Part shown: positions 37,885 through 64,000 of the stretch, one piece after another
Position numbering within the stretch: position 1 is the first letter of the stretch
Layout of the letters: each line of letters begins with the position of its first letter
Virus record (IMG/VR): IMGVR_UViG_3300045988_127961
DNA: 64,000 nt
Origin: a virus
Direction: 5' to 3' (one strand)
Made by a program: the position numbers and the translations under genes
The notes under the pieces: generated by a model
Told to the model about the DNA's origin: nothing
Databases searched by the model: none
Seen by the model: only the letters and a program-made list of their open reading frames with translations

Positions 37885-38313
37885 TTAGTCTTTAAGCGGT
37901 AATTTTAAAGTCCTTTCATAGTACTCTTTAGCCTATCCATTTCCACCTAAACCTGCATATACTTTAAAGAATTCGACTAACTATTCATACTGCCCTGAAG
38001 TCATATATCCTTGTTTTAAGAAACTTTGACATAACTGAATTAATCTAAATCTATAAGAAGCAAGAATTATTTCAATATATCTCTCACTAATTTTCTTTTC
38101 TTCCAATACAAAAGATCTCAAATTATTTAGATCTTCTTTGATTGGGGCTATATGTTCTTCAATTAATTCTTCTAATTTTTCATCTTTCTTTTCTTCTGCC
38201 AATTTTTGATACATTTTCATTTGAGTATAAATATATCTACAAAAGGCTAAGAGGCCAGCAGAAATAAGACCAAAAAATATTTCTATAAAATGCTAGGCAA
38301 TAAAAGCAGACAT
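37885..38313 (-). CDS. Small membrane protein (142 aa) with an N-terminal TM helix. Possible lysis-associated protein. Three in-frame TAGs.
   Basis: RBS GGAAGGAGG. MSAFIAQHFIEIFFGLISAGLLAFCRYIY then a charged coiled region. ORF-track fragment 37981..38220 is extended both ways through TAG codons to TAA at 37885. Confidence 0.5.
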
Positions 38314-38391
38314 AAAAAATACCTCCTTCCACTTAACTTCTAATATATTTTAAAAGAAGGGAAGGAGGATTATTTATTTAAGGCCTATCTA

Positions 38392-38904
38392 TTACTCCCA
38401 ATTAAAATCATTATTGGAACTTTCTTTCGTGAAATACGCAGTATATAAACATATGGCATCACATACATCATCATTGGCTTTTATATTATATTTTTGCTAT
38501 ACAAAATCAATATCGGCTTGTTTAAGAGTTTCACGTTTAATACTGCGTCCGGTTTTAATTCCAAGTTTTTTTCGCCATTCACTAGCCTACATTAGCTCTA
38601 ATGTTTTGGAAGTAAATGAAGAATTAACTCCGTGCGCACCTAACATTACTGCTCCTTGAAGCCACATTAATAAACGTGAAGTGTCAGAATATCCATAAGT
38701 TTCAGGATGAACATCTTCCGCCACTATCTTCTCTATATTATATTTTTTTACCAACTCAATAATCTAATCTTGTATTTTTTGTATTCTATCTAAATTATTA
38801 GAGGAAATCGCGGTTAGCAGTCCATAATCTAACATTTCTCCCTTACTATTAGATACACAATAACCAGTAGATTTAGTAGATAAATCTAAAAAGAGGATAT
38901 TCAA
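38392..38904 (-). CDS. RuvC-like Holliday-junction resolvase (170 aa, TTG start). Three in-frame TAGs.
   Basis: RBS AAGGAGG. N-terminus MNILFLDLSTKSTGYCVS... and later VAEDV and DAICLY acidic motifs typical of phage RuvC/YqgF-fold resolvases. Confidence 0.6.
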
Positions 38905-38936
38905 GTAATTACCTCCTTTCTTTAGGTTTGAGGTAA

Positions 38937-39455
38937 TTACTTTGAAGTTGAACCAAATCCTCCAAGGCGGTCACCAGAAGCGTTATCGTCTTCAGTGATT
39001 AAATAAGGTTTAATAATACCTTGGCCAATAACATCACCTTTATGAAGTTGAATATCAAAAGGAGATAAATTAATCATTTGAAAATAAATATGTCCTTCAT
39101 TGTCAGGATTATTATAATAGTCTGCATCAATAATCCCAACGCCATTAGCAAGAATAAGCCAATATTTTAAAGGACAAGAACTGCGAACTGATAATTCAAG
39201 ATATGTATTATCATTTAATTCACATTTAATTCCAGTAGGTACAAGAGTTGGTTTTGCCTTAAGATTTTTTGTCATATTACTCATATCTTCAAGGGAGATC
39301 GAATCAAAATAACATGTTGGAAATCTATTTAACAAATTCTTGTATGCTGGAATTACAATATCTTCCGCCACTGTAAAATCGTAGCCTGCGGATTTTGCTG
39401 TTTTTCTTACAGGCAAAACTGCATCAGGATATTTGCTTACTCGTTCAAACTTCAT
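38937..39455 (-). CDS. dut: dUTP diphosphatase (172 aa)
   Basis: Motifs SAGYDF, VRSS, GIIDADY, GDVIGQ and C-terminal RLGGFGSTSK. No TAG. Confidence 0.8.
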   Translation of the reverse strand: MKFERVSKYPDAVLPVRKTAKSAGYDFTVAEDIVIPAYKNLLNRFPTCYFDSISLEDMSNMTKNLKAKPTLVPTGIKCELNDNTYLELSVRSSCPLKYWLILANGVGIIDADYYNNPDNEGHIYFQMINLSPFDIQLHKGDVIGQGIIKPYLITEDDNASGDRLGGFGSTSK

Positions 39456-39703
39456 TAAAAGCTTACCTCATAATTTACATCAATATTACTAATAGGATCT
39501 TTTTCATCATTGAATTTCTTAACAAGAGTAACTTGATACCATTCATCGACAATTTCACCCTTAGCCTTTTTTTCTTTCTTTACTGAACTATACTTAGCTA
39601 AAATATATTTAGTTTCAGCCTTAGCCTCATCAATAAGCGCGGCCGCACTCTCTTCATTATCTACACGATAAACTTCTGTAGCACTTACAAGATACTTATT
39701 CAT
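39455..39703 (-). CDS. Hypothetical protein (82 aa)
   Basis: Intact ORF with TAA stop. Overlaps the dut start. Confidence 0.4.
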   Translation of the reverse strand: MNKYLVSATEVYRVDNEESAAALIDEAKAETKYILAKYSSVKKEKKAKGEIVDEWYQVTLVKKFNDEKDPISNIDVNYEVSF

Positions 39704-39963
39704 TAACCTACCTCAACTTTAATTTCTTTTCTATTGGAATAATTTAAATTATTACTTTCATAAATTTTTGGAATTAATTCATTAATAAAATCTTCAATAC
39801 CATATAAACGTATAGTATCAGTATCGTTTTTATAACAAGATGCTACTAAAACATTTGGAAGATCAGAAATACTACAAGTTCCAATAGTTACTGCCATTCC
39901 GTCATCATAAGTTTTAAAAATATTTTGTTCCATTGAAAATAAATTAATATTACAAACAATCAT
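39703..39963 (-). CDS. Hypothetical protein (86 aa)
   Basis: Intact ORF with TAA stop. Confidence 0.4.
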   Translation of the reverse strand: MIVCNINLFSMEQNIFKTYDDGMAVTIGTCSISDLPNVLVASCYKNDTDTIRLYGIEDFINELIPKIYESNNLNYSNRKEIKVEVG

Positions 39964-40497
39964 TTAATTACACTCCACAATACCAGCATCATATTGGAAT
40001 AAATAAAAACAATAAGATTCATTATCAATATTTATCCAAATTTCAATAGCGCCATTATTATTTTTTTCCCAACCAACAATACTTCCTAATTCTTGACAAA
40101 GTATAATTACCATACTCGCTAAAGAACCAGTTGAAATAATTGGAGGAATATTTTTGTGAAAAATGGTATAATAATTATAATCTTTACATAATAACATATA
40201 ATACATTCCATATTCACTCATTTCATTAATACTACTCATTAATTTATTTAATTCTTCTTTATTAATCGGATCCATTTGTATCATAATATTTTTATTAAAA
40301 TCATATAAATTCATTCCAGTTTGAAATGTAGTAGAATTATCTGACAAATTATTAGTAGTAGTTCCTATCATTACCCATTCATTTCCAGTGTAACAATATT
40401 GTTTCTGATCTTCACCAGAAATGGCAATAGTTCCTTCTTCGAATTTACGAGGAGAATTATATAATTCTCCCATCGTATTAGTATAAAAAACATTCAT
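39964..40497 (-). CDS. Hypothetical protein (177 aa)
   Basis: Intact ORF preceded by a consensus promoter and RBS AGGAG. Confidence 0.45.
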   Translation of the reverse strand: MNVFYTNTMGELYNSPRKFEEGTIAISGEDQKQYCYTGNEWVMIGTTTNNLSDNSTTFQTGMNLYDFNKNIMIQMDPINKEELNKLMSSINEMSEYGMYYMLLCKDYNYYTIFHKNIPPIISTGSLASMVIILCQELGSIVGWEKNNNGAIEIWINIDNESYCFYLFQYDAGIVECN

Positions 40498-40519
40498 TGT
40501 TATATAATCTCCTATCTAT

Positions 40520-40559
40520 TTCATAGAAAAATTATATCACAAATTTTCTTTTTTGTCAA
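40520..40559 (-). promoter_or_regulatory. Sigma70-type promoter, TTGACA-N17-TATAAT
   Basis: Minus-strand TTGACA (plus 40554-40559) and TATAAT (plus 40531-40536) with a 17-nt spacer. Confidence 0.6.
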
Positions 40560-40578
40560 GTTTTAAATTAATAATGTT

Positions 40579-41031
40579 CTAATTGCGAGAACCGCGCAAA
40601 GGTAAAGTAATATCTCTTTCCTTTTGGATATATGGTCCATCAATTAGATAATCAGCAGTTTTTAGTATATTCTTAATTCTAATATTATTACTATTCTTTA
40701 AATCATCATAAACATATCCAGTCCATATATATATTTTAATGTTTGGATATATTTTTTTAATTTCAGTAATAACTAAATTAGTTAAAAATTCGTTTTCAGG
40801 GCAGAGAGGTTCTCCACCCATAATACAAAGATTACGCGCAACATTATTCGCATTAATAGCAGTAATTAATTCATCTAATACTTTATTAGTAAATTCTTTG
40901 CCACCATTAAAATCCCACGTTTCAGGATTCTGACATCCTTCACAATGGTGCGGGCACCCTTGTGTAAAAAATGATACACATACTCCGGGTGCCGCCGCCA
41001 AATCATTCTTTATAATTCCTGCATATTTCAT
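40579..41031 (-). CDS. nrdG: Anaerobic ribonucleotide reductase activating protein (radical SAM)
   Basis: CPHHCEGC cluster. ATGA overlap with the nrdD stop. Confidence 0.75.
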   Translation of the reverse strand: MKYAGIIKNDLAAAPGVCVSFFTQGCPHHCEGCQNPETWDFNGGKEFTNKVLDELITAINANNVARNLCIMGGEPLCPENEFLTNLVITEIKKIYPNIKIYIWTGYVYDDLKNSNNIRIKNILKTADYLIDGPYIQKERDITLPLRGSRN

Positions 41032-43364
41032 TCTAATGCTCCTGTATGTTTTACTCTTGCTTCAACTTCTTTTTGTTTACCCCAGTTAAAAGCAGTTTTA
41101 TAATTGCCTGTAAGATAGCCAGTTACACGACGTAATTGCTGAATATTATGGCTTCCACACACTGGGCAAGAATCATTAAATTCATCACAATAACCGCATT
41201 CAAGGCAAGTGTCATTAGGAACATTTACTGCGAAATAAGGAATATCATGATCCATAGCATAATTAACAATAGTTTCAAGAGCATCAATATTATGTTTTAC
41301 AGTAGAATCAAGTTCAACATAAGTGATACATCCTGCGGATGAATAACCAGTCAGCTCAGATTCAATATCAATTTTTTCAAATGGACTCATTTCTTTCCAC
41401 ACCGGAACATGAATACTGTTAGTGAAAAATTCTCTATCACTAACATTAGGGATAATTCCATACCTTTCTTTAAATTTCGTCATAGCTGTATAACAAAGAT
41501 TTTCTGCTGGAGTATAGTATACACCAAAATTTAATTTATATTTTTCTTTGTATTCAGCGCATCTTTCTTTAAATAATTGTTCAATTTGTTTAGCTAATTC
41601 CATTCCTTCTGAAGTGGTGTGGTCTTTACCAATAAGAATTTGAAGAGTTTCTGCCAAACCTAACTGACCAATAGCAAGAGTTCCATGCTTAAGAGCAGAA
41701 CGAATTCCCTCTTCTGGGATATAGCCTGCCATAACGTTATTTTCATACATAAATTTCGCGGAACCTGGATCTTGAGAACAAATCCACTCAAAACGCTCCA
41801 TTAATTGAATACGCGCTTCATTGATTTTTCTATCGAGTAAAGACATAAATCGTTCTACGCCAATTTTAGTCCGTTCTTCTTGAGACAATGATTTATAGTC
41901 ATCCCAATTATCATTTTCATTTAGAGTAACGGCCATCATCGCTAGAGTAGGAAGAATAATAGTAACTGGACAAATATTTCCACGTCCATCTTTAAGCTGG
42001 CCGAATCCATTAATATCCCATCCATTCGCGGTTCTGCATCCCATCGTAGAAAAATAAGTGCGAGGATCATTAATATCATATCCAGCATTACCGGACCAAT
42101 CAACATTTGCATAATTAGGATAAAGGCGTCTTGCGGTGCTTTCTAATGCTAATCTATATAAATCATAGTTAGGATCACCAGGTTTGCGGTTAACACCTTT
42201 CATACATTGGAAAATTCCACAAGGGAAAATCGAAGTTTTATGAAGTTTACCAAGACCTTCAATAGAAACATCTAATAACGCCTTAGTCACCATTCTGCCT
42301 TCTGGTAAGGTGCAAGTGCCATAATTAATACTCGTAAATGGTAATTGGTTACCGCTACGAGACTGTAAAGTATTAAGATTATGGTAAAGACCTTCTGCAG
42401 CTTGATGAGTCTCACGGACAGTCATATCATAGGCATAATCATAAGCCTTTTTATAAGTTTCAGAAGCTAATAAATAACTAACTGCATTTTCTTCTTCAGT
42501 TTTTGTTGTGGCATTTCGGTATGATTGAATAGGCATTTTTGATGTGTCTAAATCTCCTAATACATTATTAACAATATAGTTATAATCATTAGGACTATAT
42601 AAGTATTTAACTCCATCTTTAAAATGCTTCCAAAAAGATTTTCTTACATAAGGAACCATAGTCCAATCTAAGTGAGTGGCACTAACTCCGCCAAACTAAC
42701 AAAGACTTTGGATTTGAAAAATAACAGCAATTAATTGAAATGCTGTATTAATTGAACCCGCAGGACGAACATCTGCTTGACGAGTATTAAATCCATTAGC
42801 AAGCAAATTATCAAAAGGAATACTTAAACAGTTATGAGAACCAACATAATAAGAATCAAGATCGTGAGTATATATCATATTATCAATATGATTCTTACGA
42901 GCCATAGGGGAAAGTAAGTAATCAAGTGCAAGTTGTTTGGTGACAACACCACTTGCTTCACCTATACGACCACCGAATGAATGTTCATCAACATTAGCAT
43001 TTTGATTTTTTACGTTATTACCATCGAGCTTTTCACGAATTGCTTTAATAAAATCATCTTTTTTATTACGAGCAACTTCTTTTTTATATCTATATCTGAT
43101 ATAAGCACGAGCAACATCGCGTCGCTCAGAACGCATTAAATAATCTTCAATCCAATCTTGAAGATCTTCTACTCCAACACTTCCATCGGGGAAATGATTT
43201 ATTTGTCTTTCAATGTCTTCCGCGATATCTTTTGCGGTATCATCTTCATATAGTTTACCATCAACTTCAATAAATGCTTTATTTATTGCGTTAATAATTT
43301 TCTTTTTATTAAATTGAGTTATACTTCCATCACGTTTAATAATATACAATTTTTTTGCCTCCAA
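41028..43364 (-). CDS. nrdD: Anaerobic ribonucleoside-triphosphate reductase (778 aa). One in-frame TAG at 42696-42698 joins ORF-track fragments 42696..43364 and 41028..42659.
   Basis: N-terminal ATP-cone (IIKRDGSITQFNKKKI). C-terminal Zn ribbon CLECGYCDEF...CPVCGS and glycyl-radical motif RVTGYL. Both fragments are in the same frame with no other stop between them. Confidence 0.75.
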
Positions 43365-43423: not shown

Positions 43424-43999
43424 TTATTTATCTTGGTCCATTTCCGCCCATTGCTTAACTTTTTGAGTTAAAAGATTAACAATATTATTATAATCTTCTA
43501 ATGTTTCATTTGTCACAACATTGCACTTAATATCATTCATTAGCTAAAATTGAATTTCATCAGTAGTATATCTTCTAATGATTTCATTTACATCAGGATT
43601 TTTTTCTCTATTTAATTGCCTAATTAAGCGTGTCTTTCCTTTAGCGGTAATATAATATATCTCCAATTCAATTCTATCATCTTTAAGAAGACTTATAATT
43701 CCTTCAGGATTAAAAACACCAATATTAACTTTACTATCAGACAAACTATCAATACTTGTGCCATAATACCAATTATTAAAAGAAGTGGTTTCTAACATTT
43801 TATTTTCATCAATTAAAGTTAAAAACTGGTCATCTGAAACAAAATGATAATTTTTGTCTGCTATTTCTTTTTCACGCTTCGGGCGCGTAGTGTGGCTTAT
43901 AATAGGATTTAAATATTCCTCTAAGTGGGAAAAGGTAGCCATCATTAGGCTATCTTTTCCCGCACCAGATTTTCCACATAATGCAATAATTTTATACAT
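43424..43999 (-). CDS. Guanylate-kinase-like nucleotide kinase (191 aa). One in-frame TAG at 43544.
   Basis: RBS AAGGAGG inside the polymerase 3' end. P-loop GKSGAGKDS and SHTTRPKREKE motif. ORF-track fragment 43544..44029 continues through TAG to TAA at 43424. Confidence 0.5.
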
Positions 44000-46900
44000 C
44001 TTCTTCAATTCCTCCTTGATAACGAGCATCTTTTAAAACTAAATCGCCATTAGATAAAATTTCATCAATTTTATATAATTGATGCCCTCCAGAAGAAGCA
44101 TATTTTTTTGACATGAAATTATCTCCATTGCGGATTCCAGAGACTACAATCATATTTCCGCGATTAAACCAAGATTTTTCAACAATATGTTTGGTTCCAT
44201 CTGCACCGCGCTCTGAAATTTGTTTATCAAACAAACTAAAATATTCTTTTCTAAATTTTACTTCTACAGGACCAGTAGTAGTAAGGATAGTTACGGTACT
44301 TTTAGTTTTATTTTTGGCAATACAAGTTCCGCAAATTTTAAATAACTTATAAATATGAATAGTATGATTTCCTTTAGTAAAACTTCTATCAATTATTGGG
44401 TCTTCTGGAAGTTTAAAGAAATCTACAAATCCATATTTATCATTGTTAATATTGTTTAATTCATGAGTATGATAATAATAACAAAGAACTTCCATTTCCC
44501 AAGCGGATAGATTATTTTTATTAGCGTATTTATCCCAATCATCTTTAAATATTTTTATATTCAGATTATTCAAAATTTCATCTTTATTATTAGCAATCCA
44601 AGTGCGAAATATATCCATCCACTTTTGGTATATACCATTCCAAATATTTTCACTTAAAGAATAATTAGTTCCATCAAATTGAATATTATTATCTTCTCCA
44701 ATTTCTACTAAGAAATTAATAGCTCGTTCATCAAGTTGATATAAACCATTATTTTTTGTAGTTTTACAAATTGCTTTTAAATATCTATTAAATTCATAAA
44801 TACGGCGAGCCATAATTTGATTTTCATTTTCTTCTGGAAGAAGATCATACTTCATAAGTCCGCCCATATTTTGAAGAGTAATTCTTTTCTTTTTGTCGCA
44901 AGTTTCCCAAATATACCAAATCATTAATTCTTTTCTATCCATCATATTATCAAAAGCTCCGCCTTTAATAAGAGAAATCATAGCTTGTTTACCTGGCTTA
45001 ATACGATATAAAAATTCTTTAGGATTTGAATAAGGGCGATTGGCAATGATTGTATTAACTAATTCATCACCAACATTTAGCATACCTTTTAGTCCAAAAA
45101 GGATTTTATTATTTTCAATATCAGGGGCAAATCCAAATTTAGATTTGTTAATATCAGGAAGACCTACTTCAATTCCTGCTTTTTGAATGTCACTAATAGC
45201 CTTGGCAATTTTTCCATAATCAGTAGCCGCGGTTTTGCGGATTTTGCCACTTTTGTCAGGAAGATCTTCAAATGTTACTCCATTAGCTAAATCATCGCCT
45301 TCAGGAGCATAAATATCGACAATCTCTTCTTCGCTATTATCTTCAAGGGAACCACTATTAACAATTAAACAAGCGGTATCCCAATAGATAGGATTAAAAT
45401 GAATTACTAAGTAAATCATTTGAATTGCTACAAATGAATAAGGAAGGGAATGGTTAAGGCTAAATGCATATCCTAATTGAGGAGCAACTGCAATTTCCCA
45501 AAAGTATTCAGCAGATTTTTCATTATCAAATTTACTAAATACTTGTTCTCTCAGTTGTGGAATTTTAGCCATTTGCTTTTTAGCAACAATCTTACGCGCA
45601 GTATTAGCTTCACCAAGAGTAAAATGAGCTACATCCATAAGGATTTCCATCATTTGCTCTTGAATAGGACAACATCCATAATATTTATCACAATGCTTAT
45701 GCATCTTATCAATTAATTCTTGTGGAAGATGCTGAGCCTTCATTTCATCATCAAATACTTTAATACCCGAATGTTGAATGCGATAATATCTATCTTGCTG
45801 TGATTCCTTGCCTTTTTCAGACATAAGACGCATCATAGCATTTGCCGCCGTCATTTCCATAGGGTCTTGGGGTTTAAGACGTTTCGCAATTGCTAAACCA
45901 ACTCCCGTAGAAAATTGGAATACATCTAATACATCACCCGCGGCAAGGTGGTCCCAAATTGCTTGGTCAGTTGTATCTATTACTTCTGGATGAATATATT
46001 TATTATAGAATTCTCGTAAAGATAATTCTGGAATTTGTTTATCTTTTAGAAGTAATTGATAACAAGTAATAATTTTGTCAGAAGCTTCAGTTACAAGGAA
46101 GTCATATTTTGTATCTCCCGCGGCTTCCGCTTTATGAAGATCCCAACAAGTAATCATATCTCCACTAGGAGTTCTCATAAATGATGCTGTATCAAATGGA
46201 TCGTCACCATACAAAATAACGCCAGAAGCATGAGAAGAACGTTTATTAACCATTCCTTCAATATATACAATAATATTCAAAAGACCAGGATATTGGTTTA
46301 CTTCTCGAATAAATGCTTGAACGGGTTTACGGTCTTTTTCTTCATTACCATAAATAACATCATGGATAGGCCATAAAAATCCACGCTCTTGGGGAATTAA
46401 TGAAGACATATATTGAGCATTATCAACATCAATTCCTTCTGGAAATTCTTCACTTCTATATCCACGACAAGCAGTTAAAATACTTTGTTTAGTGCCTTCA
46501 GTTCCAAATGTAGCAACTTGAACCAATCCCAATTCTCCGCGTTCTTTTCTAATTGCTTTAAAAATTGCGGGACGCTTACTTGGGGCAAGGTCAATATCAA
46601 TATCGGGCAATTCCGCGCGCTCCTTATTTAAAAATCTCCAATAAGGAAGTCCCCAACGAATTGGGTCTAATTGAGTAATACCTAAAAGATAATTAGATAA
46701 AAAGCCAGTCGCAGAACCACGTCCAGGACCTACAATACTTCCACATTCCCAAAATAAATTAATATAATGTTGGAAAGTATTAAAATAAGCAAAAAGACAG
46801 TCATCTAATTTTTCGCCAATATCTTTTATGATATCAGCTTCAATTTCAAGTCGTTCCAAATAATTTTTATTATTATAAAGTTGCTTTTCTTGTAAAGCTT

Positions 46901-47982
46901 TAATACATTCATTTACCCAATATCGTTCTTGAATATTGTCGCTATTAATTAAAGAACAGATAATTGGATATTTATCGAACCAATTTGAAGGAATAAATCC
47001 TTTCTTATAATCCTTTACTTCAACTTTTGGAATAATTTGTTTTCTTTCTAATGAATAAAAAGAAATTTTATTTTGGATCTCTTGAGTGTTATCAAGAATC
47101 CAATTTATCAATTCTTTTCCTGTTTTATTACCTTTATCCCAATCATTAGCATAAGGTTCCATTAATTCAAAAATTTCATCACTCGTCATTAAGTAAGTAA
47201 ATTTATAAAAATCGTCAACTTCTCTTTCTCCTGGCTTAGAAGTAAGATATGCTTTATGAATGGATCTATCGTCTTTAGTTAAATAATGCGCATCTGTTCC
47301 AACTACCATTTTTAAATCAAATGCCTTGGCGATTTGATAAATTTTATGATTTACAATTATTTGCTCAGCATCAGTAGATGGCGCACATTCAAGATAAAAA
47401 TCATCTTTTCCAAATACTTTAATACAAAAATTGATATAATCAATTATTTGATTATAATATTTAGTTTGAGTTTCAATATCTTTGTTTAATTCAGCTTGGA
47501 ACATTGGTAAAATACAACTCCCAAGTTCTCCACCAATACAAGCAGTTGTTGCTATAACATGCCCTTTATATTGTTCCATTACCATTTCAAGTTCACTTTT
47601 TAAAGTAGGAACTCGTTCCATACGTCTATCAACATAACTATGAATCCAAGCAATAGAACTTAATTCTCTTAACGCTTTATGTCCAATGGCATCTTTAGCA
47701 ATAAGAATAAAGTGGTAATATTTTTGTCCGTTATCTCTTGTATCAGTGAGATAAATTTCATTACCAAGAGCAATAGTAAAATCAGGATTTTCTTCTCTTA
47801 TTTTTTTTGCATATTGATTTACTTCCATATGCGCAGAAAGGCATTCATGGTCTGTAATAGTTATTCCTGATAGGCCTAATTCTATCGCTTTGTCAATAAG
47901 AGCTTGTGGTCTATTAATACAGTCAAAGTAAGCGGAGATTCGAATACATAGTATGATTATGGATACCAAAATATGATCTCAT
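43992..47982 (-). CDS. DNA polymerase III alpha-type (DnaE-like, PHP domain) replicative polymerase, about 1330 aa. No TAG. An apparent +1 frameshift lies near 47922-47928.
   Basis: ATG 47982 gives MRSYFGIHNHTMYSNLRLL then TGA. The +1 frame continues DCINRPQALIDKAIELGLSGITITDHE... Together these reproduce the PHP motif (HxH..YS..D, AITDH). Confidence 0.75.
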
Positions 47983-48644
47983 TCTAACTCCAGCCCTCCT
48001 TCCAAATTCATTATTTTATCAATAAAATAATCTGAAGTAGTATTTGTTTTTATTTTAAAAGCATTCCATTCTTCCATTGTCATATCTCTTTTTGAAAAAT
48101 TTTCATAAACTGTTAAAAATTGATAATTTTCTAATTTTTCTTCTCCACCTTTGGAGATTGGAATTATATGATCTAAGCTAGGTTTGGCCCAATCATAAAA
48201 TGTTTTATTTTTATTCTTATTATTATTCCAAAATTGGTATACTTTATTAAATTGTTTATCTTGCCAAAAATATCTTATAATAGTTTTATATTCTTCAATA
48301 TGATTATTATAATAAAGCAAATCTCTATGAGTAATTCTTAATGCTTTATGTAAAAATAAATATTTTTCAAAATCTTCTTTAAATTCATTAAGAAAATCTT
48401 CTTCAACTTCTATATAAGTTGTTGCTTGGAAAGCTTTTTTCTTTCTATCACAACCACAACTAGTTTGGGTATAATTCCCATTCCCTGTTAAATATGAAGT
48501 AGGCACTTTACAATAATTGCCGCATTCACATTTACACAGCCAATAATTTCCATGGGTTTGTGTCGGACGTTCTTCTATTGAGCAAAGACGTATAACTTTT
48601 AATTTTCCAATTTGTTTATCAGTTAAGTCATATTTTGTAGCCAT
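47979..48644 (-). CDS. HNH endonuclease with an N-terminal Cys cluster (221 aa)
   Basis: DHIIPISKGGEEKLENYQFLTVYEN is an HNH motif. CKCECG...CGC. Overlaps the polymerase start. Confidence 0.65.
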   Translation of the reverse strand: MATKYDLTDKQIGKLKVIRLCSIEERPTQTHGNYWLCKCECGNYCKVPTSYLTGNGNYTQTSCGCDRKKKAFQATTYIEVEEDFLNEFKEDFEKYLFLHKALRITHRDLLYYNNHIEEYKTIIRYFWQDKQFNKVYQFWNNNKNKNKTFYDWAKPSLDHIIPISKGGEEKLENYQFLTVYENFSKRDMTMEEWNAFKIKTNTTSDYFIDKIMNLEGGLELE

Positions 48645-51515: not shown

Positions 51516-51540
51516 AATCTACTCCATAAATGAAAATAAT

Positions 51541-52418: not shown

Positions 52419-52582
52419 AAATGATTTCCTCCTAATAGGTTTTTTAAGTCTATTAGTCGTAGTGTCAATTATTAAAAATAATAAGCAGCCCTATCTACAA
52501 TTTCGTAATCTTCTATAATAATCTAAGGACTAATGTTATTATTCCATATATTTCGTTCGCATTTACCAACGATATTAATTGT

Positions 52583-54607: not shown

Positions 54608-54894
54608 AAACCGCTCTCTCCCATCTTATGCCCTAATGGACAAATATGAAAAAGAACAGGAATTTCCATTTCCGTATATCCTTTTTCTAAATCTCCATTA
54701 TATCTAATTACTTTTCGAGTTTCAATTCCACTTGATATACACTTACTGGTTTTATCATAATATTTATTACATTTATCGCAATAAATACAACTTCGGAGCA
54801 AACTATCTCTTTGTTTTTTTAATCCTTCGATTTGCGCGCTCAGTGAAATAATTGTATCATTTACAGAGATAGGAATATCATAATCATCATTCAT
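54604..54894 (-). CDS. Zinc-ribbon-containing small protein (96 aa)
   Basis: CIYCDKCNKYYDKTSKC and HICPLGH. Confidence 0.4.
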   Translation of the reverse strand: MNDDYDIPISVNDTIISLSAQIEGLKKQRDSLLRSCIYCDKCNKYYDKTSKCISSGIETRKVIRYNGDLEKGYTEMEIPVLFHICPLGHKMGESGL

Positions 54895-55994
54895 ATAAAT
54901 ATCCTTTCCTTATATAATTGTAAAAATTTTTCTTTACCATCATCAATTGGTGAATCTTTGTATTTTGTAATCATATTTTTATCAAAAATAAAAGATATAA
55001 GCACATCATTTTTAAATTTAGTTCTAATTTTTAAAAGATTTAACTTTAAGTGTTGAAATTCTGCGTCTCCAATTTCTTGGAATTGTCTATCAAAAGCAAT
55101 TATAATTTCTTGCGCACCACTATCTAATAATAATTGAATTTGATGCGAAGAAACATTACTTCCGCAACAAGCTACTGATATATTGTTATTCCAACCGAAA
55201 TCAGTAGCATATTTCAATACTGATTTTTCACTTTCAAAAATGATTGCTTTTTTCATTATGCCAATGGCCTTTTTAGACCAATTTAATCCATATAAGTTCA
55301 TTCCAAGAGGATGATTATATAATTGATTATTTATTTTCATTGGTCTATATTTCCCATATAGCTCCGCCTCGTCTTTGCACATGGTGCGTCCGCGCAAGCC
55401 TACAAATCTTCCGCTAATATCATAATGAGGAATTGTAATTTGATCGGCTCCTGGATAAAAACCAATACGTGCTTTATTAATTACTTCTTGAGAAATTCCT
55501 TCATCAAGCCAAGGAATTATTTTAATATTATAATTTAATCTATTTAAAATAGAATCATCATAATCTTTTAAAATAATTTTATTATTTTTTAATTCAATCT
55601 CTTGGATACGAGAATAATTTGATAAAATTTTCCAATCATCTAAAGTTTTACCCATATCGTCATCTTTTATCATGCCTGACAAACCAAAACGACGAGCAAC
55701 CCATAACACTGAATCATTTAAATCAAATTCTTCATCATATTGAATTTTCATTACTTTAGAACATAATTCAAAAATATCAAAAGTTGAATCGCATCCCGTG
55801 TAGCATTTAAATAATCCTGTATTTTCATAAAAATAAAGTTTTCTGCTACCTTCTCCAGGAGGATTATGACAAATGGTGGAAGAGAGAATCCCGAATTCTG
55901 TATATTCAGGATCTCCGCCCCATTCAATTAATAAATCATAAATATTTTCAAGCCCAAGAGCTTGACGAATTTCTGATTTATCAAATACTATCAT
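54891..55994 (-). CDS. DNA primase, DnaG-like (367 aa)
   Basis: Zn-binding CHNPPGEGSRKLYFYENTGLFKCYTGC. TOPRIM-like region. Confidence 0.65.
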   Translation of the reverse strand: MIVFDKSEIRQALGLENIYDLLIEWGGDPEYTEFGILSSTICHNPPGEGSRKLYFYENTGLFKCYTGCDSTFDIFELCSKVMKIQYDEEFDLNDSVLWVARRFGLSGMIKDDDMGKTLDDWKILSNYSRIQEIELKNNKIILKDYDDSILNRLNYNIKIIPWLDEGISQEVINKARIGFYPGADQITIPHYDISGRFVGLRGRTMCKDEAELYGKYRPMKINNQLYNHPLGMNLYGLNWSKKAIGIMKKAIIFESEKSVLKYATDFGWNNNISVACCGSNVSSHQIQLLLDSGAQEIIIAFDRQFQEIGDAEFQHLKLNLLKIRTKFKNDVLISFIFDKNMITKYKDSPIDDGKEKFLQLYKERIFI

Positions 55995-56180: not shown

Positions 56181-57713
56181 TTAAAAAGCTGACTCTTCTT
56201 CAAGAGTAATTTTTATATCATCAATAGGAACAAGTTCATAAGCGTATGTAGTACAAAACATAGGAATAATTCTACAAGTTCCTAAATCTGCTTTACACCA
56301 TAAAATAACTCCTTTATACCTACCACGTCTATTTTTATAAACAGACATTTTAATAGTTGGAGTATCAAATAATTTTGTGTTTAGTATTTTTTCCAATGAA
56401 ATTAAATCATCATCTTGGACATTTAAAAGAATTGATCCATAATCTACTTTATCGGCAATAGATTTTGCTCCACGCAAAAGATTCTGGTCAGGAGTTTTAG
56501 AATCAACATAATCACCATTTAACTGTGTTGCTGACATAATAAAAACACCATATTGATTACAGATATCTTTTAATTTGTTAGATAGCATAAAAAGTATGTT
56601 ATCTTCACGAAGTTTTACTCCACCACTACGACGAGTAATTTCTTCAAGAATTTTCATGCTTGTATGAATATAGTCGTGAAATATATATTTTACATCGTGA
56701 TCTCGGATGCCTTTTTTGATTTCATTCTCGACATCCTGCAATGAAAAATCAGGTAATTCACGGATATACAATGGGCTATCTTTAAGAATTTTTGCGGCCT
56801 CTATTACTCGTTCTTTTTCATTTCCTTGATATTCATTATAAATAATATGTTCTTCATTCACATTAGAAAGAAAAGCAAGCATCATTGTTTGAATTTCATT
56901 TTTATCTTGCTCTGTAGTTATATACAATACTGGTTCTTGAATTCCGTTTTTAATCCAACTTCCAAAAGTATCATCATATATTTTATTACAAGCAATATAG
57001 CACGAATCCGCAATCATAGAACGAGTTTTACCTACTCCTGTGGCCGCGGAACGCAAATAAAACTTTTTAAGTCTTGCACCACGAGTAACTGTATTAATTA
57101 ATGGCCCATATAGAGGACTTCCTGCTATTGGATGTTGCTCTAAGTCATCAAGCAATTCAAAAATTCCATCACCTGCTTGAACCGCAACTCCTTCAACGTC
57201 ATTTACATACTCATATTTAATTTGTTCTATGCGGTCATCAATTAATTGTGCGATATGCTCTAATGAAGAATTATCAAGATTATCTTCTTGTAATTGTTTT
57301 TTTTCAGTATCTAAAATATTATCAGGGTCATAAATAAAAGAAACATCAATGCCATATCTGTCATAAGCGCGAAGTAGAGACATTTTTTTTAAACGACCAT
57401 AATAATAATCAAATGATAAAGGTTTCGCATTTTCAGAAACTTTTAATAACCACTCTTCGCCTTTATTAACTTTAAATGTAGCTTCATATTTAGGGCGAGA
57501 AGAAAGAAAATCACTAATATTTTCTAAAGTAATTTTCTAAGCTCCTAATTCATGAATTTTATATATTGCTCCAAAAACAATTCTATGAAATTCATCAGCG
57601 AAATCTTCATCAGTTATTATATATCTATCAGTAAAATCCAAAAGCTAAGGAGTATTATATACGCACCCTATAACTTGTGTAATCGCTGTTGGGTCTACAT
57701 ATTTACTCGGCAT
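56181..57713 (-). CDS. Replicative DNA helicase, DnaB-like (510 aa). Two in-frame TAGs (57645 and 57537) extend the ORF-track fragment upstream to ATG 57713.
   Basis: RecA-fold motifs GARLKKFYLRSAATGVGKTRSM. N-terminal domain EFHRIVFGAIYKIHELGAQKITLENISDFL. Confidence 0.7.
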
Positions 57714-58053
57714 TTAAGTCCTCCTATTCATCTAAAAATGTAAAAACTGATTTTTTTCGAGGTTCTTTTTTAGGAATAGGAATTTTTATTTCCTTTAATT
57801 TAGGAACGTAATCAATAACATTTTTATCTTTATTGGATTGTTGAATCATCCAAAGATTATAATAATAATTGTAAGCGTCTTTATAAATAAAAGGTATAAT
57901 ACCAATTCCACCATTAGCTTTATTTTTATTATTTCCCTTAACCTCATAAAAATAAACTAAGGCTTTTAACATTCCAGAATATGTATATTGGTATTCTCTT
58001 ATATAATCATTCATTTGCTTGCGGACGCGAGCATTAATATATGATTCTCCCAA
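57703..58053 (-). CDS. Hypothetical protein. Probably N-terminally longer (possibly to about 58283) with a C4-type zinc-finger segment and a non-canonical start. One TAG at 57724 and another upstream.
   Basis: The ORF stays open upstream of TTG 58053 through KVKCIYCQQTF...RRYAHPEC to a TAA. Only an ATA/ATT codon follows the AAGGAG RBS at about 58283. Confidence 0.35.
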
Positions 58054-58328
58054 TAAGTTTTTTACATATTCTTCAAATTTTTCTTTATCTAAATCTTCTT
58101 TTGTTTTTACTTTTTCGGGCGAATTATGAACTTGTAAAGGAGTGTCTTCATTTTCAGCCTATTTAGCACATTCAGGGTGCGCATATCTTCGAGATTTTAT
58201 TTGAACATAAGGAAATTTATCTCTATCAAAAGTCTGCTGACAATAAATACATTTAACTTTATGTATATAAATTACTCCTTTCCATTACTTTATATAAATA
58301 TTATACAATATTTTTAAATAAAAGTCAA

Positions 58329-58371: not shown

Positions 58372-59367
58372 TTACTTATTTTCCATTTGAGGAAGAAGAT
58401 CATCTTTAATTTCGCCAACAATTAAAGATACAAATTCTGCCTGCTCAGGAGTGGCGTCAGAAATTTTCTTGCCTTTACCCAAATATTTATCAATAATTTG
58501 AGTGATACGAGGACCAAAGAATCCAGGATTCTTATTCATCATATCTCCAGCAAGATTTTGGAATTCAGCCATAAGTGCTTCATAATCATAAGTAGGAGCT
58601 TCAGGGGCAACGACCATCTTTTCATCAGTGACAAATTTACCACCATTGTCAGCTGCTTCCTTATCAATAGCCTCATGGATAGCATTAATAAGACTATCAT
58701 AATTCATAGGAATTTCGCTTTCAATATACTTGAAACGACCACCACAGTCAATAAGGTCATTACCAGAACGAAGAGTTAGGACAGACATTTGGCCGGCCGC
58801 CTTTTGATGAGCATATCCATAAACATCAGCCATACCGGTGATAATAGTGCGAGTGGATTGAGAAAGATTTGGTCTTACTGCCACAACCTCAGTGCCATCA
58901 GGACGAGTTACAGTTTGTTCTTTTTCATGTCCGATAAAGAAAACGGCATATCCAAGACGAGTTAAACCTCTAAAGACTTCATTAAATTCATCTTTAAACT
59001 TAGACCAGCCCTTACCATAACCAAGGTCTCCAAGAGATTCAATCTGATTTTGATTACAGATATATTTCTCACAATATTTAGCGGCTTCATCAATAGTATC
59101 TACAATAATAGCATTATACATTGCCTTTACTTCTGGACGCTTCAAATCACGATAAACTTGCTTCATTTCTGCCCAAGAAGTAATGTCCGCGGCCATAACA
59201 CCAGGAAGGCAGTTATAGCCTTGCTCAAAAGCTAAAAGCAAAGAATTCGGCATTTGAGTCGCCAAAGTAGTCTTGCCTGTCTTGGGCTTGCCATAAATAA
59301 AAGTAATATAACCAGAAAGATCTTTACTTACCTTATGAGGTTGAATTTTAGTTAAATCAATAGCCAT
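58372..59367 (-). CDS. Sak4-like RecA-family ATPase (AAA_24-type ssDNA annealing/recombination protein), 331 aa
   Basis: Walker A GKPKTGKTTLA. No TAG. Confidence 0.6.
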   Translation of the reverse strand: MAIDLTKIQPHKVSKDLSGYITFIYGKPKTGKTTLATQMPNSLLLAFEQGYNCLPGVMAADITSWAEMKQVYRDLKRPEVKAMYNAIIVDTIDEAAKYCEKYICNQNQIESLGDLGYGKGWSKFKDEFNEVFRGLTRLGYAVFFIGHEKEQTVTRPDGTEVVAVRPNLSQSTRTIITGMADVYGYAHQKAAGQMSVLTLRSGNDLIDCGGRFKYIESEIPMNYDSLINAIHEAIDKEAADNGGKFVTDEKMVVAPEAPTYDYEALMAEFQNLAGDMMNKNPGFFGPRITQIIDKYLGKGKKISDATPEQAEFVSLIVGEIKDDLLPQMENK

Positions 59368-59514: not shown

Positions 59515-60462
59515 TTAGAATTTAAAACCTTCTGTAGCAGGGGATGCGACAGTAGTAGCAGTAGTAACATTCTGCTTAGAAGCTTTATATTCATCTTGAC
59601 GCTGCTTCAAAGTAGCAAGGTAAGTCTCACGCGCGGCCATAGCTTCAGTAAGCTCTTTCGCAGTGATAGAACTTTCATCATCCCAAACATAAGGCTCCTT
59701 AGCGCCACCGGTAATAACAAAATCCTTACGAGTGCTTTGAACCTCACGAACATTATCATCGCCAAACGCAGACTCTTCACGAATCTCGCGCTTAATTACT
59801 TCAGATACCTGACGACCCCAAAGCTTTGTGAACACAGGCTCAGAAGGAGAGGCTCCAAGACCTTCGTAATAAGCCATAGCTCCAGGATTAGTAGCTGTAA
59901 ACTCAACAGGAAGCAAAGACTTACGGAAATCAAAAATTGCTCCCTTAACAATTACCTTTTCAGGGATATTGTGCTCTTCATCAGCATCAACATGAGTCAC
60001 ATTGGTGATAATCATGTCGCACTTAAAAGTATTGCGCTGTTTTTCATCATCAATAAGAGTAGTAGTAGTATGAACAAATCCGCCCTCATTGCGCTTAGTG
60101 CTTACAAGCTCTTCCTTGCCGTTACGATCAGAATAAAATTCATTAAGACCAATCGCAGAATCAACACGAAGCTTAGCAGCTTTATCTTCTCCATCAGCCA
60201 TATAATTACCGATTGTACCATCAATAATATTCTGAAGAATACTATATGTAGCATTAGGAGTGCCCTTAGTAGTAGTTTGAGTTACATAAGTAAAATGAAC
60301 CTGGACGATATTAGTAAGAGCATTATCAGTAGCAATACTAATAGTACCAGAAATAAAAGGAGTGCCGGGATTCTTAGAATTTGGTCCGGTTACCTTATTT
60401 TCCAAAGCATGTTCGTACAAGATACCTTCAATATGAGTAGCATTTTCCATTACTTTCTTCAT
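59515..60462 (-). CDS. Putative ssDNA-binding protein, partner of Sak4 (315 aa)
   Basis: RBS AAGGAG. Position immediately upstream of the Sak4-like gene. No TAG. Relatively GC-rich codon usage. Confidence 0.3.
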   Translation of the reverse strand: MKKVMENATHIEGILYEHALENKVTGPNSKNPGTPFISGTISIATDNALTNIVQVHFTYVTQTTTKGTPNATYSILQNIIDGTIGNYMADGEDKAAKLRVDSAIGLNEFYSDRNGKEELVSTKRNEGGFVHTTTTLIDDEKQRNTFKCDMIITNVTHVDADEEHNIPEKVIVKGAIFDFRKSLLPVEFTATNPGAMAYYEGLGASPSEPVFTKLWGRQVSEVIKREIREESAFGDDNVREVQSTRKDFVITGGAKEPYVWDDESSITAKELTEAMAARETYLATLKQRQDEYKASKQNVTTATTVASPATEGFKF

Positions 60463-60921: not shown

Positions 60922-60934
60922 GTTATGATTAATT

Positions 60935-61700: not shown

Positions 61701-61865
61701 TTATATAATCATAATATGAAATAAAATCAATTCCAATAATTCCATATCCTTCTGACTTAATTCTCCATCAGGATTAGAACAAGCAATAATAGCATTTTTC
61801 TCTTTGGCTAACAATATTAATCTACTCGTTTTTCCTGTTCCACGTTTATCAATTATTCTATACAT
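61701..61865 (-). CDS. Small ORF (54 aa) with a P-loop-like GTGKT motif. Possibly a gene remnant.
   Basis: MYRIIDKRGTGKTSRLILLAKEKNAIIACSNPDG... followed by a second 25-codon ORF in the same frame after TAA. Confidence 0.2.
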   Translation of the reverse strand: MYRIIDKRGTGKTSRLILLAKEKNAIIACSNPDGELSQKDMELLELILFHIMII

Positions 61866-62878
61866 TATTTTATACTATACCCAAATTCCTTAGCTTTAAA
61901 ATAGTCTTGCCAGTAATCTTCTCGCACATCTAACTCTTCACGAGAACATTCTTCTATTACTTCAAAACTAAAATTTTCTACTCCAATAGCCAACATAGCA
62001 GGATAAAGTTTATTGCGTGTGGCGGGTTCCGCTCCAATTCCGCGTTTAATATGTTGTTTCCAACGCGCAGAAAGATCGACTGCTTGACCCACATAACACA
62101 TTTGATTTTCTAAATTAGTAATTTTATAAATCCCTGTATGGACTCCAGAACCGATTACTCGACCAATTAAATCTGTAGTTGGTTTTTCATAATAACTTTT
62201 CCAAATTACTTTATTTAAAATATCTTTATCACGAAGTTTTGGTTCAATAGAACGAAGAAGACTGATTTCATCAATATCTATTTGAGGCAACTATAATTTA
62301 TAAAAATCAGCTTGATTTTTAATTTCTTCGGCACGTTTCGCAGCATCAACTGCGGCCGCGACTTCTCTACTATGTAATTGAATTTCTTCATCTAATTTAT
62401 TTAATTCTTCTTTTTTAGAATCAATTAAATTAGATAATTCTAAAGAACAATCAACAAGAGTTGATTGATATTCATTTTCATATTCTTCTTTAGCTTTCGT
62501 ATATTTAAATTCTTGTTTATTTAAATCATATTCAAGGCGAACACGAGCATTTTCCATTGATTGCTGATAGAAAATATCCGCTGATTGCTTTGCTTGGTTC
62601 TATAAAGAATTTAAACTATTTTCAACTTCGTCTCTTTTGGACTAAAGAATATTTAAATTATTTTCTACTTCTTCTTTTCTGGAAGTAATACCTTTTACTG
62701 CCGTTGATAATATTGTATACTAATCATCTAAATCTGAATTTTTATATTCAAGCTCTTTATTTTGTTTTATTATTTCTTCATTAAGCTTTTGAATATTATT
62801 TAGTCGTGGACGTAAAATAAAATATATTAAAAATCCACCAATAATAAACGCCAGTATAGCAATTATTAAAGTAAGCAT
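61865..62878 (-). CDS. Membrane-anchored coiled-coil protein with a C-terminal GIY-YIG nuclease domain (337 aa). Four in-frame TAGs.
   Basis: N-terminal TM LTLIIAILAFIIGGFLIYFIL, repetitive coiled coil, then GIYKITNLENQMCYVGQAVDLSARWKQHIKRG. ORF-track fragments 61865 and 62291 are joined by TAG 62291 and extended upstream to ATG 62878. Confidence 0.5.
62599..62683 (-). repeat. Imperfect ~40-bp tandem duplication inside the coiled-coil coding region
   Basis: TATAAAGAATTTAAACTATTTTCAACTTCGTCTCTTTTGG versus CTAAAGAATATTTAAATTATTTTCTACTTCTTCTTTTCTGG. Confidence 0.35.
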
Positions 62879-62893
62879 AAATATTTAAAAAAG

Positions 62894-62922
62894 AAGGGGC
62901 AGATATTAAATATCTACCCCTT
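62894..62922 (-). terminator. Hairpin terminator (13-bp stem, one mismatch) downstream of the 62938 gene
   Basis: AAGGGGCAGATAT / ATATCTACCCCTT followed on the minus strand by a T-rich run. Confidence 0.5.
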
Positions 62923-62937
62923 AATAATTTATATTAA

Positions 62938-63207
62938 TTACTCCGCGTCAGGAGCGTCGGGATCAAAGCTCATGCCAGCGGGAGTGAGAGAGAGGAACTT
63001 GACCTGCTTATGAGTGCCATCCTCAAGCTCAACCTCAGCGGGAGTGCGAAGACCGAGACCCTTGCGCTGAATAGCACTGGTAAAGATACCATCAACAGAA
63101 CGCTTCTCGAGACCGAGAGCCTCAGCAACATCAGCAGCGGTAACTTCCTGACCGTTAACTTCCTTCAAATAATTAAGAACCTTCTTAGAATTTTCCTTCA
63201 TAGCCAT
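62938..63207 (-). CDS. Small putative DNA-binding protein (89 aa) encoded by an anomalously GC-rich (~50%) gene
   Basis: RBS AAAGGAG. Consensus promoter upstream. GC-rich codons (GCG, CTC, GAG, ACC) contrast with the surrounding ~30% GC sequence. Confidence 0.5.
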   Translation of the reverse strand: MAMKENSKKVLNYLKEVNGQEVTAADVAEALGLEKRSVDGIFTSAIQRKGLGLRTPAEVELEDGTHKQVKFLSLTPAGMSFDPDAPDAE

Positions 63208-63260
63208 AATAATAATAATCTCCTTTAAATAATTAAATATTTTTTTTTATTTTTTTCTTT

Positions 63261-63310
63261 TAACCTTTAGGTTATGTAAATATTATAGTAAAAAATTTTT
63301 TATTTGTCAA
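63261..63310 (-). promoter_or_regulatory. Consensus sigma70 promoter, TTGACA-N17-TATAAT
   Basis: Minus-strand TTGACA (plus 63305-63310) and TATAAT (plus 63282-63287) with a 17-nt spacer. Shares the 20-bp element TTGACAAATAAAAAATTTTT with the promoter at 63534-63562. Confidence 0.65.
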
Positions 63311-63500
63311 GAATTTTTCCAAGAATTTCTTGAACCATTTCGTCAATGGTTGTAATATCATCAAGACTGTGAACGTGGCTCGAAAGTTCCATAATTTGAT
63401 TCTGGGCTTTACGAACAGCTTGCGGGTCTTCACTTGTCTGAACGACTAATTCTGCATTAGCAATTTTTTTTGCGAGATTCTTGAGTTCTTTTGTTTTCAT
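63300..63500 (-). CDS. Small hypothetical protein (66 aa)
   Basis: RBS AAGGAAG. Preceded by a promoter. Confidence 0.4.
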   Translation of the reverse strand: MKTKELKNLAKKIANAELVVQTSEDPQAVRKAQNQIMELSSHVHSLDDITTIDEMVQEILGKILDK

Positions 63501-63533
63501 TTAAAAATTTTCTTCCTTAATTTTTACAAGTTT

Positions 63534-63562
63534 ATTTTACAAAAAATTTTTTTATTTGTCAA
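63534..63562 (-). promoter_or_regulatory. Sigma70-type promoter, TTGACA-N17-TAAAAT
   Basis: Minus-strand TTGACA (plus 63557-63562) and TAAAAT (plus 63534-63539) with a 17-nt spacer. Confidence 0.55.
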
Positions 63563-64000
63563 AACATTCCGCCAAAGTGCAGTCGGTAATGTTCTTATCA
63601 TCGCGGAATCCTTTAAAAAAGCCATGCCTTAAAGTATGCTCTTCATTATTGCGTTGCATACACTGTATGGCAACTACTCGATTAAGGTATTTTTCAGGTT
63701 CTTTAGCAAAAGCTTCTTTAAGTTCATCGGTTAATCCAGAGGATACCGTTCCGATTTCAATAAGATTTCCTTTATCATCATAGGCGCCTAACTTCATAGA
63801 TGTCTTCCATCCATAATAATAGCCTTTGGTAATTGGTTGATAATATTTTTCATCATCTTCTAATAAATTACTTCCATTAGCAGGAGGATTCTTCAAATAA
63901 TTTTTATAGAAATTTCCTTTTACTAATTGGGGTTTTGACCATCCTGCGAAACAATGATCTTCTTCAAAGCAATTATAAAACATTGGAGTTTTTATTTCCC
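63552..64000 (-). CDS. ATP-dependent DNA ligase, C-terminal OB-domain part (the 5' portion lies beyond the window end)
   Basis: C-terminal LRHGFFKGFRDDK resembles the LRFPRF.R.R.DK ligase motif. The ORF is open to the window edge. Confidence 0.45.
   Translation of the reverse strand, partial: EIKTPMFYNCFEEDHCFAGWSKPQLVKGNFYKNYLKNPPANGSNLLEDDEKYYQPITKGYYYGWKTSMKLGAYDDKGNLIEIGTVSSGLTDELKEAFAKEPEKYLNRVVAIQCMQRNNEEHTLRHGFFKGFRDDKNITDCTLAECFDK

Follow-up and report, generated by a model that had tools for sequence, protein, structure and literature searches.

The window analysed here is a 64-kb stretch of a viral genome (IMG/VR record IMGVR_UViG_3300045988_127961). It belongs to an uncultivated gut phage in which TAG is a glutamine (Gln) codon, as in code 15, and in which the use of this codon varies from gene to gene. 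Selection acts on TAG content gene by gene and in a frame-specific manner, and it persists across lineages. TAG is nearly excluded from the genes encoding the DnaE-like DNA polymerase, the primase, a 315-residue protein, a lysozyme-like protein, the capsid, the scaffold and the tail tube. It accumulates in those encoding the RuvC-like resolvase, the GIY-YIG nuclease, the RecJ-like exonuclease, the endolysin, small membrane proteins and low-copy tail proteins. On balance, this distribution is best explained by a model that combines timing and expression demand as two axes.

The guanine-plus-cytosine (GC) content of the window is 30.2%. Coverage by open reading frames (ORFs) of at least 150 codons rises from 29.6 kb under the standard code to 59.0 kb when TAG is read as sense, and this doubling indicates that the recoding is real. 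Genes were called from starts supported by Shine-Dalgarno sequences (33 on the minus strand and 19 on the plus strand) and functions were assigned from Pfam and PHROGs. With TAG as sense, the window resolves into two convergent arms: a plus-strand late module of 19 tail and virion genes (positions 3–37850), including those for the tape measure, tail proteins and fibres, and a minus-strand arm of 33 genes devoted to replication and nucleotide metabolism (63998–37885). A bidirectional terminator with a 20-bp stem (37834–37880, both strands) separates them. The 52 called genes all end in TAA (40) or TGA (12), and strong AGGAGG-type, Firmicutes-like ribosome-binding sites precede the starts. Megablast against GenBank phages gave no nucleotide-level match to the window. 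IMG/VR contains dozens of relatives, with contigs of up to 197–201 kb, some of which use the standard code in this region. A first impression that TGA is also recoded in some relatives was due to spurious ORFs, which arise in AT-rich DNA when TGA is read as sense.

Opposite the TAG codons of the window, standard-code orthologues have Gln in 45 of 114 aligned cells, followed by glutamate and lysine, and Gln is the exclusive residue at the conserved sites NrdD 218, NrdG 151, helicase 213 and RecJ 566. The 78 TAG sites of the tape measure gene have the same substitution profile as its CAA/CAG sites; Gln is the majority residue at 28 of them and any other residue leads at no more than 10. Several genes of the replication arm (all on the minus strand, as are the other genes of this arm cited below) are split under the standard code, and they could be viewed as inactivated pseudogenes or fragments. 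However, Pfam domains continue through the TAGs of NrdD, RecJ, DnaB, the helicase and NrdG. In the anaerobic ribonucleotide reductase NrdD (41028–43349, 773 codons), the PF13597 match (E=5e-143) extends over the single TAG (codon 218), and each of the 23 orthologues without TAG at this position has Gln instead. In the NrdG activase (40537–41031, 164 codons), the Fer4_12 match (a radical-SAM domain, residues 15–154) includes the TAG at codon 151, which is Gln in all 21 orthologues without TAG at this site and TAG in 18 others. The TAG of the RecD/PIF1-like superfamily 1 helicase (49011–50204, 397 codons, TAG at codon 213) is flanked by the AAA_30 and UvrD_C_2 domains and corresponds to Gln in 21 orthologues. 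The DHH, DHHA1 and RecJ_OB domains of the RecJ-like exonuclease (52472–54220, 582 codons) extend over its TAGs (codons 70, 160, 246, 336, 543 and 566; seven TAGs if counted from stop to stop). The DnaB-like helicase (56181–57713, 510 codons, PF03796 and PF00772) has TAG at codons 23 and 59, the former opposite Gln in 15 orthologues, and has none in a clade with 76% identity. In addition, dozens of relatives maintain these reading frames, a tRNA(CUA) is encoded by near-identical relatives, and proteomics has validated code 15 in other phages (PMC9523058). The continuity of the domains and the alignment of TAG with Gln exclude the pseudogene reading, to which practically no credence is left. The split genes are therefore intact, as the sequence-only reading (an earlier note made from the letters of this DNA) had assumed. 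Its warning that such genes would be mis-annotated as fragments is confirmed by the GenBank record of the distant code-15 phage phAss-1, which shows this very fragmentation. With pipelines based on the standard code, nrdD, recJ, dnaB, the helicase gene and almost every virion gene would be reported in fragments for this family of gut phages, which is abundant.

The two arms differ strongly in TAG content. All 19 late genes carry at least one TAG (193 in 11,927 codons), and TAG reaches 16.2 per 1000 codons in the late arm versus 3.8 in the replication arm (Fisher P=2e-18), or 36% versus 10% of the Gln-type codons (Fisher P=6e-17). TAG use is thus non-uniform, as the sequence-only reading stated; its ten-fold enrichment in the structural module has to be lowered to 4.3-fold (3.3-fold if the tape measure gene is left out). 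Inside the replication arm, heterogeneity is modest (permutation P=0.003 with chi-square and about 6e-5 with the G test; 0.02 and 0.004, respectively, once DnaE is removed). The gene of the DnaE-like DNA polymerase III alpha subunit (43992–47969, 1325 codons, TTG start) is the sole gene of this arm that is individually significant: it has 50 CAA/CAG codons and no TAG, where 6.0 TAGs are expected (P=0.002). Its off-frame TAG trinucleotides (25 and 19) are near the average of the arm, and the depletion is thus specific to the reading frame. Zero TAG is also found in the genes of the primase (54891–55994, 367 codons, phrog_47, E=1e-33), the Sak4-like AAA_24 ATPase (58372–59367, 331 codons, PF13479, E=1e-41) and the 315-residue protein (59515–60462), each of these zeros being non-significant within the window (1.2–1.5 expected, P=0.23–0.29). 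The number of TAG-free genes in the arm (19 of 33) is not in excess of expectation (16.2, P=0.12). TAGs show no 5' bias inside genes (mean relative position 0.45, P=0.14), and gene conservation does not correlate with TAG density inside the window.

The list of TAG-free genes given by the sequence-only reading stands for DnaE, primase, Sak4, the 315-residue ORF, the dUTPase (38937–39455, 172 codons, PF00692) and an HNH endonuclease (47979–48644, 221 codons, weak HNH match), and fails for NrdG, which has one TAG. Its label of single-stranded DNA-binding-like protein for the 315-residue ORF finds no support in Pfam, PHROGs or PDB searches: Pfam and PDB gave no match, and the sole match is phrog_2367, a family of unknown function. 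Among the genes that it listed as TAG-bearing, the counts are right for the RuvC-like resolvase (38392–38904, 170 codons, weak PF02075 match, three TAGs), the small membrane protein (37885–38313, 142 codons, three TAGs), the membrane-anchored coiled-coil GIY-YIG nuclease (61865–62878, 337 codons, four TAGs), DnaB (two), NrdD (one), the RecD-like helicase (one) and the guanylate-kinase-like protein, a deoxynucleoside monophosphate kinase (43424–43999, 191 codons, PF00625, E=1e-21, TAG at codon 152). RecJ has six TAGs from its start codon instead of five. All four TAGs of the GIY-YIG gene fall within the N-terminal coiled-coil part, the PF01541 domain covering residues 249–329.

The pattern was followed in orthologues from about 28 recoded contigs whose DnaE is 63–99% identical to that of the window, by counting TAG columns among the alignment columns that hold Gln-type codons. 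TAG occurs in 3 of the 92 Gln columns of DnaE, where 17.6 are expected (P=6e-6), in 3 of 51 for the primase (P=0.011), in 1 of 34 for the 315-residue ORF (P=0.01) and in none of 47 for the lysozyme-like gene (25 relatives, P=7e-5). This last gene (51579–52418, 279 codons, no TAG) encodes a Phage_lysozyme2-domain protein (PF18013, E=3e-19) with an N-terminal signal or transmembrane segment. The avoidance is not significant for Sak4 across these relatives (6 of 53 columns). TAG is found in 19 of the 30 Gln columns of RuvC (P=6e-9), in 21 of 65 for GIY-YIG (P=0.001) and in 10 of 28 for the small membrane protein (P=0.013), and RecJ has 18 distinct TAG columns. Where a column is invariant for Gln, the choice of codon is purely synonymous; in such columns, TAG is present in 1 of 18 for DnaE versus 23 of 52 in other genes (Fisher P=0.003). 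The exclusion of TAG from DnaE, though strong, has exceptions: five relatives have one in-frame TAG in this gene, four of them at a position where the window has Gln.

Such differences might be neutral, TAG arising wherever Gln is tolerated and more often in fast-evolving genes, without any function, an idea also raised by Lou et al. Consistent with this, variability correlates with TAG column density across relatives (Spearman 0.40, P=0.026) and the TAGs of the tail genes lean to variable C-terminal parts. However, neutrality does not account for the contrast between DnaE and the other genes at invariant Gln columns. RecJ and DnaE are similarly conserved between clades (75% and 76% identity), yet the former has 5–8 TAGs and the latter none, and the fast-evolving genes at 39964–40497, 39703–39963 and 51579–52418 (the lysozyme-like gene) have few or no TAGs. 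Furthermore, the distant phAss-1 has the same sets of TAG-free and TAG-rich genes. Variability accounts for part of the pattern and not for its main contrasts, and neutral accumulation as a general explanation is highly improbable.

PhAss-1 is a 136-kb code-15 phage with 36 transfer RNAs (tRNAs), three of which are tRNA-Sup-CTA (PMC10607447; GenBank OQ749652). Its capsid is 50% identical to the capsid-like protein of the family studied here. When its genes are re-called under table 15, DnaE (59 Gln codons), primase, Sak4, the homologue of the 315-residue ORF, the helicase, NrdD, the capsid and the tail tube have zero TAG; RecJ has 4, the GIY-YIG homologue 8 and the tape measure 110. As the DnaE of phAss-1 is only 37% identical to that of the window and its GC content is 44.5%, this agreement does not stem from inherited TAG positions. 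Long-separated lineages thus agree on which genes avoid TAG and which collect it, and this makes the family a clean comparative test of the purpose of in-frame stop codons. The NAMPT protein of phAss-1, tried as an anchor to find further relatives, retrieved only phAss-like contigs and none of the family of the window.

The avoidance of TAG also concerns the major virion proteins. In the head/tail cluster that relatives carry upstream of the tape measure gene, five late genes (scaffold-like, the next gene, capsid-like, one further gene and tail-tube-like) are essentially TAG-free: TAG makes up 1–2% of their Gln codons in about 60 recoded relatives, versus 31–47% in the genes between or beside them. 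The capsid and tail-tube identities come from tblastn homology to Bacillus phage proteins that are annotated as major capsid and as major tail or tail tube proteins; Pfam and PDB searches gave no match for either protein. In late genes, the proportion of C-ending two-fold pyrimidine codons, taken as a codon-bias proxy for high expression, correlates negatively with the TAG fraction (Spearman -0.53, P=0.007). This correlation and the avoidance of TAG by the most abundant virion proteins would be expected if TAG were slow or leaky to translate and were avoided according to expression level or protein cost, with no role for timing. However, no such correlation exists in the replication module (rho=0.09), and the avoidance is strongest in DnaE despite its TTG start, weak ribosome-binding site and mid-range codon bias. 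Moreover, the tape measure protein, with about 2,800 residues and roughly 90 TAGs, implies near-complete read-through late in infection, which fits poorly with a costly codon. Translational cost alone is therefore an unlikely explanation.

The opposite simplification is a pure temporal switch: TAG-free genes would be early genes read under the host code, whereas TAG-bearing genes would await the suppressor, the number of TAGs setting the delay. This model is published (bioRxiv 10.1101/2021.08.26.457843) and was adopted by the sequence-only reading. Part of it holds: TAG is frequent in the late tail genes and the endolysin and scarce in the replication arm. In the same way, the small regulators and the operon that runs from a winged-helix gene (62938–63207) through the 315-residue ORF to Sak4 are TAG-free, and each lies behind a strong sigma-A-like promoter, that of the operon being perfect (TTGACA-17-TATAAT, 63282–63310, minus strand). 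However, TAG-free does not amount to early: the capsid, scaffold and tail tube genes are late and yet equally TAG-free, the capsid and tail tube genes in phAss-1 as well.

The location of promoters does not support the switch either. The intergenic gaps of the replication arm contain seven strong sigma-A-like promoters, among which a perfect extended -10 promoter (40531–40559, minus strand) between nrdG and the next gene. The first gene past these promoters is TAG-free in four of seven cases, equal to the background of 58%, and no clustering of TAG-free genes next to promoters is found. In addition, predicted operons mix TAG-free and TAG-rich genes. Past Sak4, a terminator (58355–58328) is followed by a promoter with 11/12 matches (58328–58300), both on the minus strand. 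The predicted operon starting there and ending at a terminator (51572–51541, minus strand, a hairpin with a 13-bp stem and a T tail) directly 3' of the lysozyme-like gene carries two TAGs in a zinc-ribbon gene, two in DnaB, none in primase, six in RecJ and none in the lysozyme-like gene. The switch is also at odds with DnaB, a replisome component that needs read-through at codons 23 and 59, with the single DnaE TAG of five relatives, and with two suppressor tRNA genes of phAss-1, which lie upstream of, and co-directional with, TAG-free replisome genes. A purely temporal role of TAG is therefore unlikely.

A suppressor tRNA was sought in the window and in its relatives. No tRNA, and no Rfam family at gathering score, was found in the window, and no tRNA was found in about 104 kb made up of the window and five protein-anchored scans of relatives. 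Relaxed ARAGORN settings yielded only false matches inside genes, and a low-threshold Rfam scan of 33800–35000 yielded chance matches only. By contrast, a search pattern built from the anticodon and T arms of the phAss-1 suppressors identified a 90-nucleotide tRNA(CUA) in two contigs (L246:9078–9167 and L239:7965–8054) whose DnaE is 97–99% identical to that of the window. The features of this tRNA include a long variable arm, a U·U pair at 1:72 and G73, and it is homologous to one phAss-1 suppressor. It is part of a tRNA array that shares its strand with the replication arm and lies about 32–38 kb upstream of a NADAR-like gene, hence roughly 65–70 kb upstream of DnaE. Two of the suppressor genes of phAss-1 are found upstream of nrdD, co-oriented with the TAG-free replisome genes. 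The array of L246 also includes a poorly structured 80-nucleotide ARAGORN call with the opal-reading anticodon TCA (7726–7805). This contig is TAG-recoded and its genes still end in TGA; the TCA element may be a false call or a degenerate tRNA.

The combined model can be drawn as follows. The reading of TAG would depend on the amount of charged suppressor tRNA relative to the release factor 1 of the host. It would be absent or inefficient early in infection and never wholly cost-free, so that each TAG would slow translation to a degree set by dose and time. TAG would be avoided by genes needed before the suppressor appears or at low suppressor levels (polymerase, primase and regulators), as would genes whose products are needed in very large amounts (capsid and tail tube). 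Nucleases, lysis proteins and low-copy tail proteins, the early or excess product of which would be harmful or unneeded, would tolerate or even favour it.

A stronger proposal can be put forward tentatively: TAG might be a per-gene translational throttle acting on two axes, and not an early/late marker. It would have been purged from the core of the replisome and from the highest-copy virion proteins and positively retained in RuvC, GIY-YIG, RecJ, the endolysin and small membrane proteins. If so, the translation of potentially self-damaging enzymes would be restrained until the suppressor prevails, even though their genes are co-transcribed with essential ones. The assignment of genes to the two classes is the same in lineages that share only 37–50% protein identity.

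Several observations weigh against the combined model or limit its reach. Its kinetic part is what we infer from the distribution of TAG. DnaB, although needed together with DnaE, has two TAGs in this lineage. The correlation between variability and TAG column density cited above goes in the same direction. The zero TAG of the lysozyme-like gene has no obvious reason. The codon-bias proxy is not predictive of TAG inside the replication arm, where RecJ combines a high proxy value with six TAGs. For the capsid, the identification relies on gene order and on a match of 26% identity to a protein annotated as capsid, and a structure model of the capsid-like protein, built from a shallow alignment, was too poor for use (predicted local distance difference test score of 42). 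Finally, the tRNA(CUA) is seen in near-identical relatives and not in the window itself.

The relatives also provide the sequences that lie upstream of the replication arm and beyond the edge of the window. The ATP-dependent DNA ligase gene that runs off the window (63552–63998, minus strand, PF04679) has zero TAG in the 3' part present here; the complete gene is found in L046. In that contig, an endolysin gene with lysozyme2 and amidase domains (L046:1528–2898), just upstream of the window, carries eight TAGs, and its neighbours encoding PhoH, a topoisomerase and the ligase are TAG-free, a contrast that speaks for the combined model, in which harmful genes would be gated. Two lysozyme-type genes thus have opposite TAG contents, the one in the replication arm having none in 25 of 25 relatives. 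Also upstream of the replication arm, L081 carries a Cys/Gly-rich repeat peptide adjoining a radical-SAM/SPASM-type enzyme with three TAGs (6837–7541 and 7876–9165). This pair resembles a peptide-maturation system of the type that yields ribosomally synthesized and post-translationally modified peptides.

Other observations concern the replication arm itself. The DnaE gene product is 38% identical to SPbeta YorL-type polymerases. The match to this gene covers 4.9–5.8 kb instead of 3.9 kb in L017, L024, L027, L029, L035, L038 and L039, which suggests intein or intron insertions in the DnaE genes of these relatives. The HNH gene, which adjoins DnaE, occurs in only 2 of about 30 relatives. This gene is probably a mobile homing element, and a recent arrival may be enough to account for its zero TAG. 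The zinc-ribbon gene (57703–58266), the first one past promoter 58328–58300, probably starts with ATA. The first 77 codons of the corresponding ORF (57703–58284) are devoid of ATG, GTG and TTG, the ATA at 58266 comes after a strong ribosome-binding site (GGAAAGGAG), and a CxxC...HxxC zinc ribbon is encoded in the N-terminal part. The phrog_4680 match of this protein begins at profile position 64. These features suggest a non-canonical start codon. The hairpin at 51541–51572 overlaps the first eight codons of the next called ORF (51069–51566), including its first TAG; translation of this ORF may in fact begin at the ATG at 51515, in which case it would have one TAG and not three.

In the late arm, a close relative that is 98% identical elsewhere (L019) lacks a 2.5-kb stretch of the window (35163–37633). 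This stretch extends from the 3' end of the gene at 34919–35365 into the gene at 37530–37850 and includes five small late genes, and its absence shows that this end of the late arm varies between strains. A LytTR-type response-regulator-like gene (33960–34675, minus strand, TAG at codon 17) lies among the late genes behind two sigma-A-like promoters with 11/12 matches each, whose -10 elements end at 34749 and 34728. In the window, this gene is frameshifted by a 1-nucleotide deletion near 34452 (CATCTTTAAAAAC versus CATCTTTTAAGAAC or close variants), and it is intact in all 14 relatives covering the deletion site.

Uneven stop-codon recoding across gene classes is already known, and the related phAss group has been described. 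PhAss-1 shares with the family of the window homologous capsid (50% identity), DnaE (37%), RecJ (34%), tail tube, NrdD and GIY-YIG genes, the convergent two-arm layout, a homologous tRNA-Sup(CUA) with a long variable arm, and coinciding sets of TAG-free and TAG-rich genes. It differs in genome size and composition (136 kb and 44.5% GC versus about 190–200 kb and 30% GC), in the gene order of the replication arm, and in the two suppressor tRNA genes directly upstream of nrdD, where the window has only a 75-nucleotide gap. Kinship with this group of Clostridia-type phages (the proposed Phassvirus group, 'Caudoviricetes code 15 clade') is at most at the family level. The closest cultured relatives of DnaE (38%), the capsid (40%) and the tail tube (39%) are SPbeta-like phages and siphoviruses of the Enterococcus EF1/VRE9 type, which use the standard code without TAG recoding.

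Crass-like phages resemble the family in that reassignment mostly affects late genes, in encoding suppressor tRNAs and in switching code over short phylogenetic distances, and Yutin et al. put the timing view for them (PMC7886860). For crAss-like phages, peptides with Gln at TAG positions have been reported from proteomics (PMC9523058). However, these phages form an unrelated lineage with Bacteroidetes hosts, in which TAG or TGA is reassigned. Their capsid gene carries reassigned stops, which served there as a detection criterion, whereas the capsid gene avoids them here.

The gut phages studied by Borges et al. (bioRxiv 10.1101/2021.08.26.457843), which include Lak, crAss-like, Jade, Sapphire and Garnet phages and other clades, read TAG as Gln in a host presumed to use the standard code, as here. 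In their model, early genes are expressed with the code of the host, and the structural and lysis genes become readable later through suppressor tRNAs, the use of the alternative code being variable in the replication machinery. These phages share with the family low GC, a suppressor tRNA (here encoded by near-identical relatives), heavy recoding of structural and lysis genes with variable recoding of replication genes, and the occurrence of standard-code and recoded relatives within one clade. Their study used the same per-family test of TAG versus CAA/CAG. The Jade clade would fit the family by description only (genomes of about 200 kb, Firmicutes-type signals, mixed codes). Compared with that study, the avoidance of TAG is resolved here gene by gene inside the replication arm, its conservation is followed over distant lineages, and it is found to be equally strong in the capsid and tail tube, as the temporal model does not predict. 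These results are a modest refinement of a known phenomenon and not a new one. The exceptions to the early/late rule (capsid, tail tube and DnaB) nevertheless indicate that the published timing model needs a term for expression demand.

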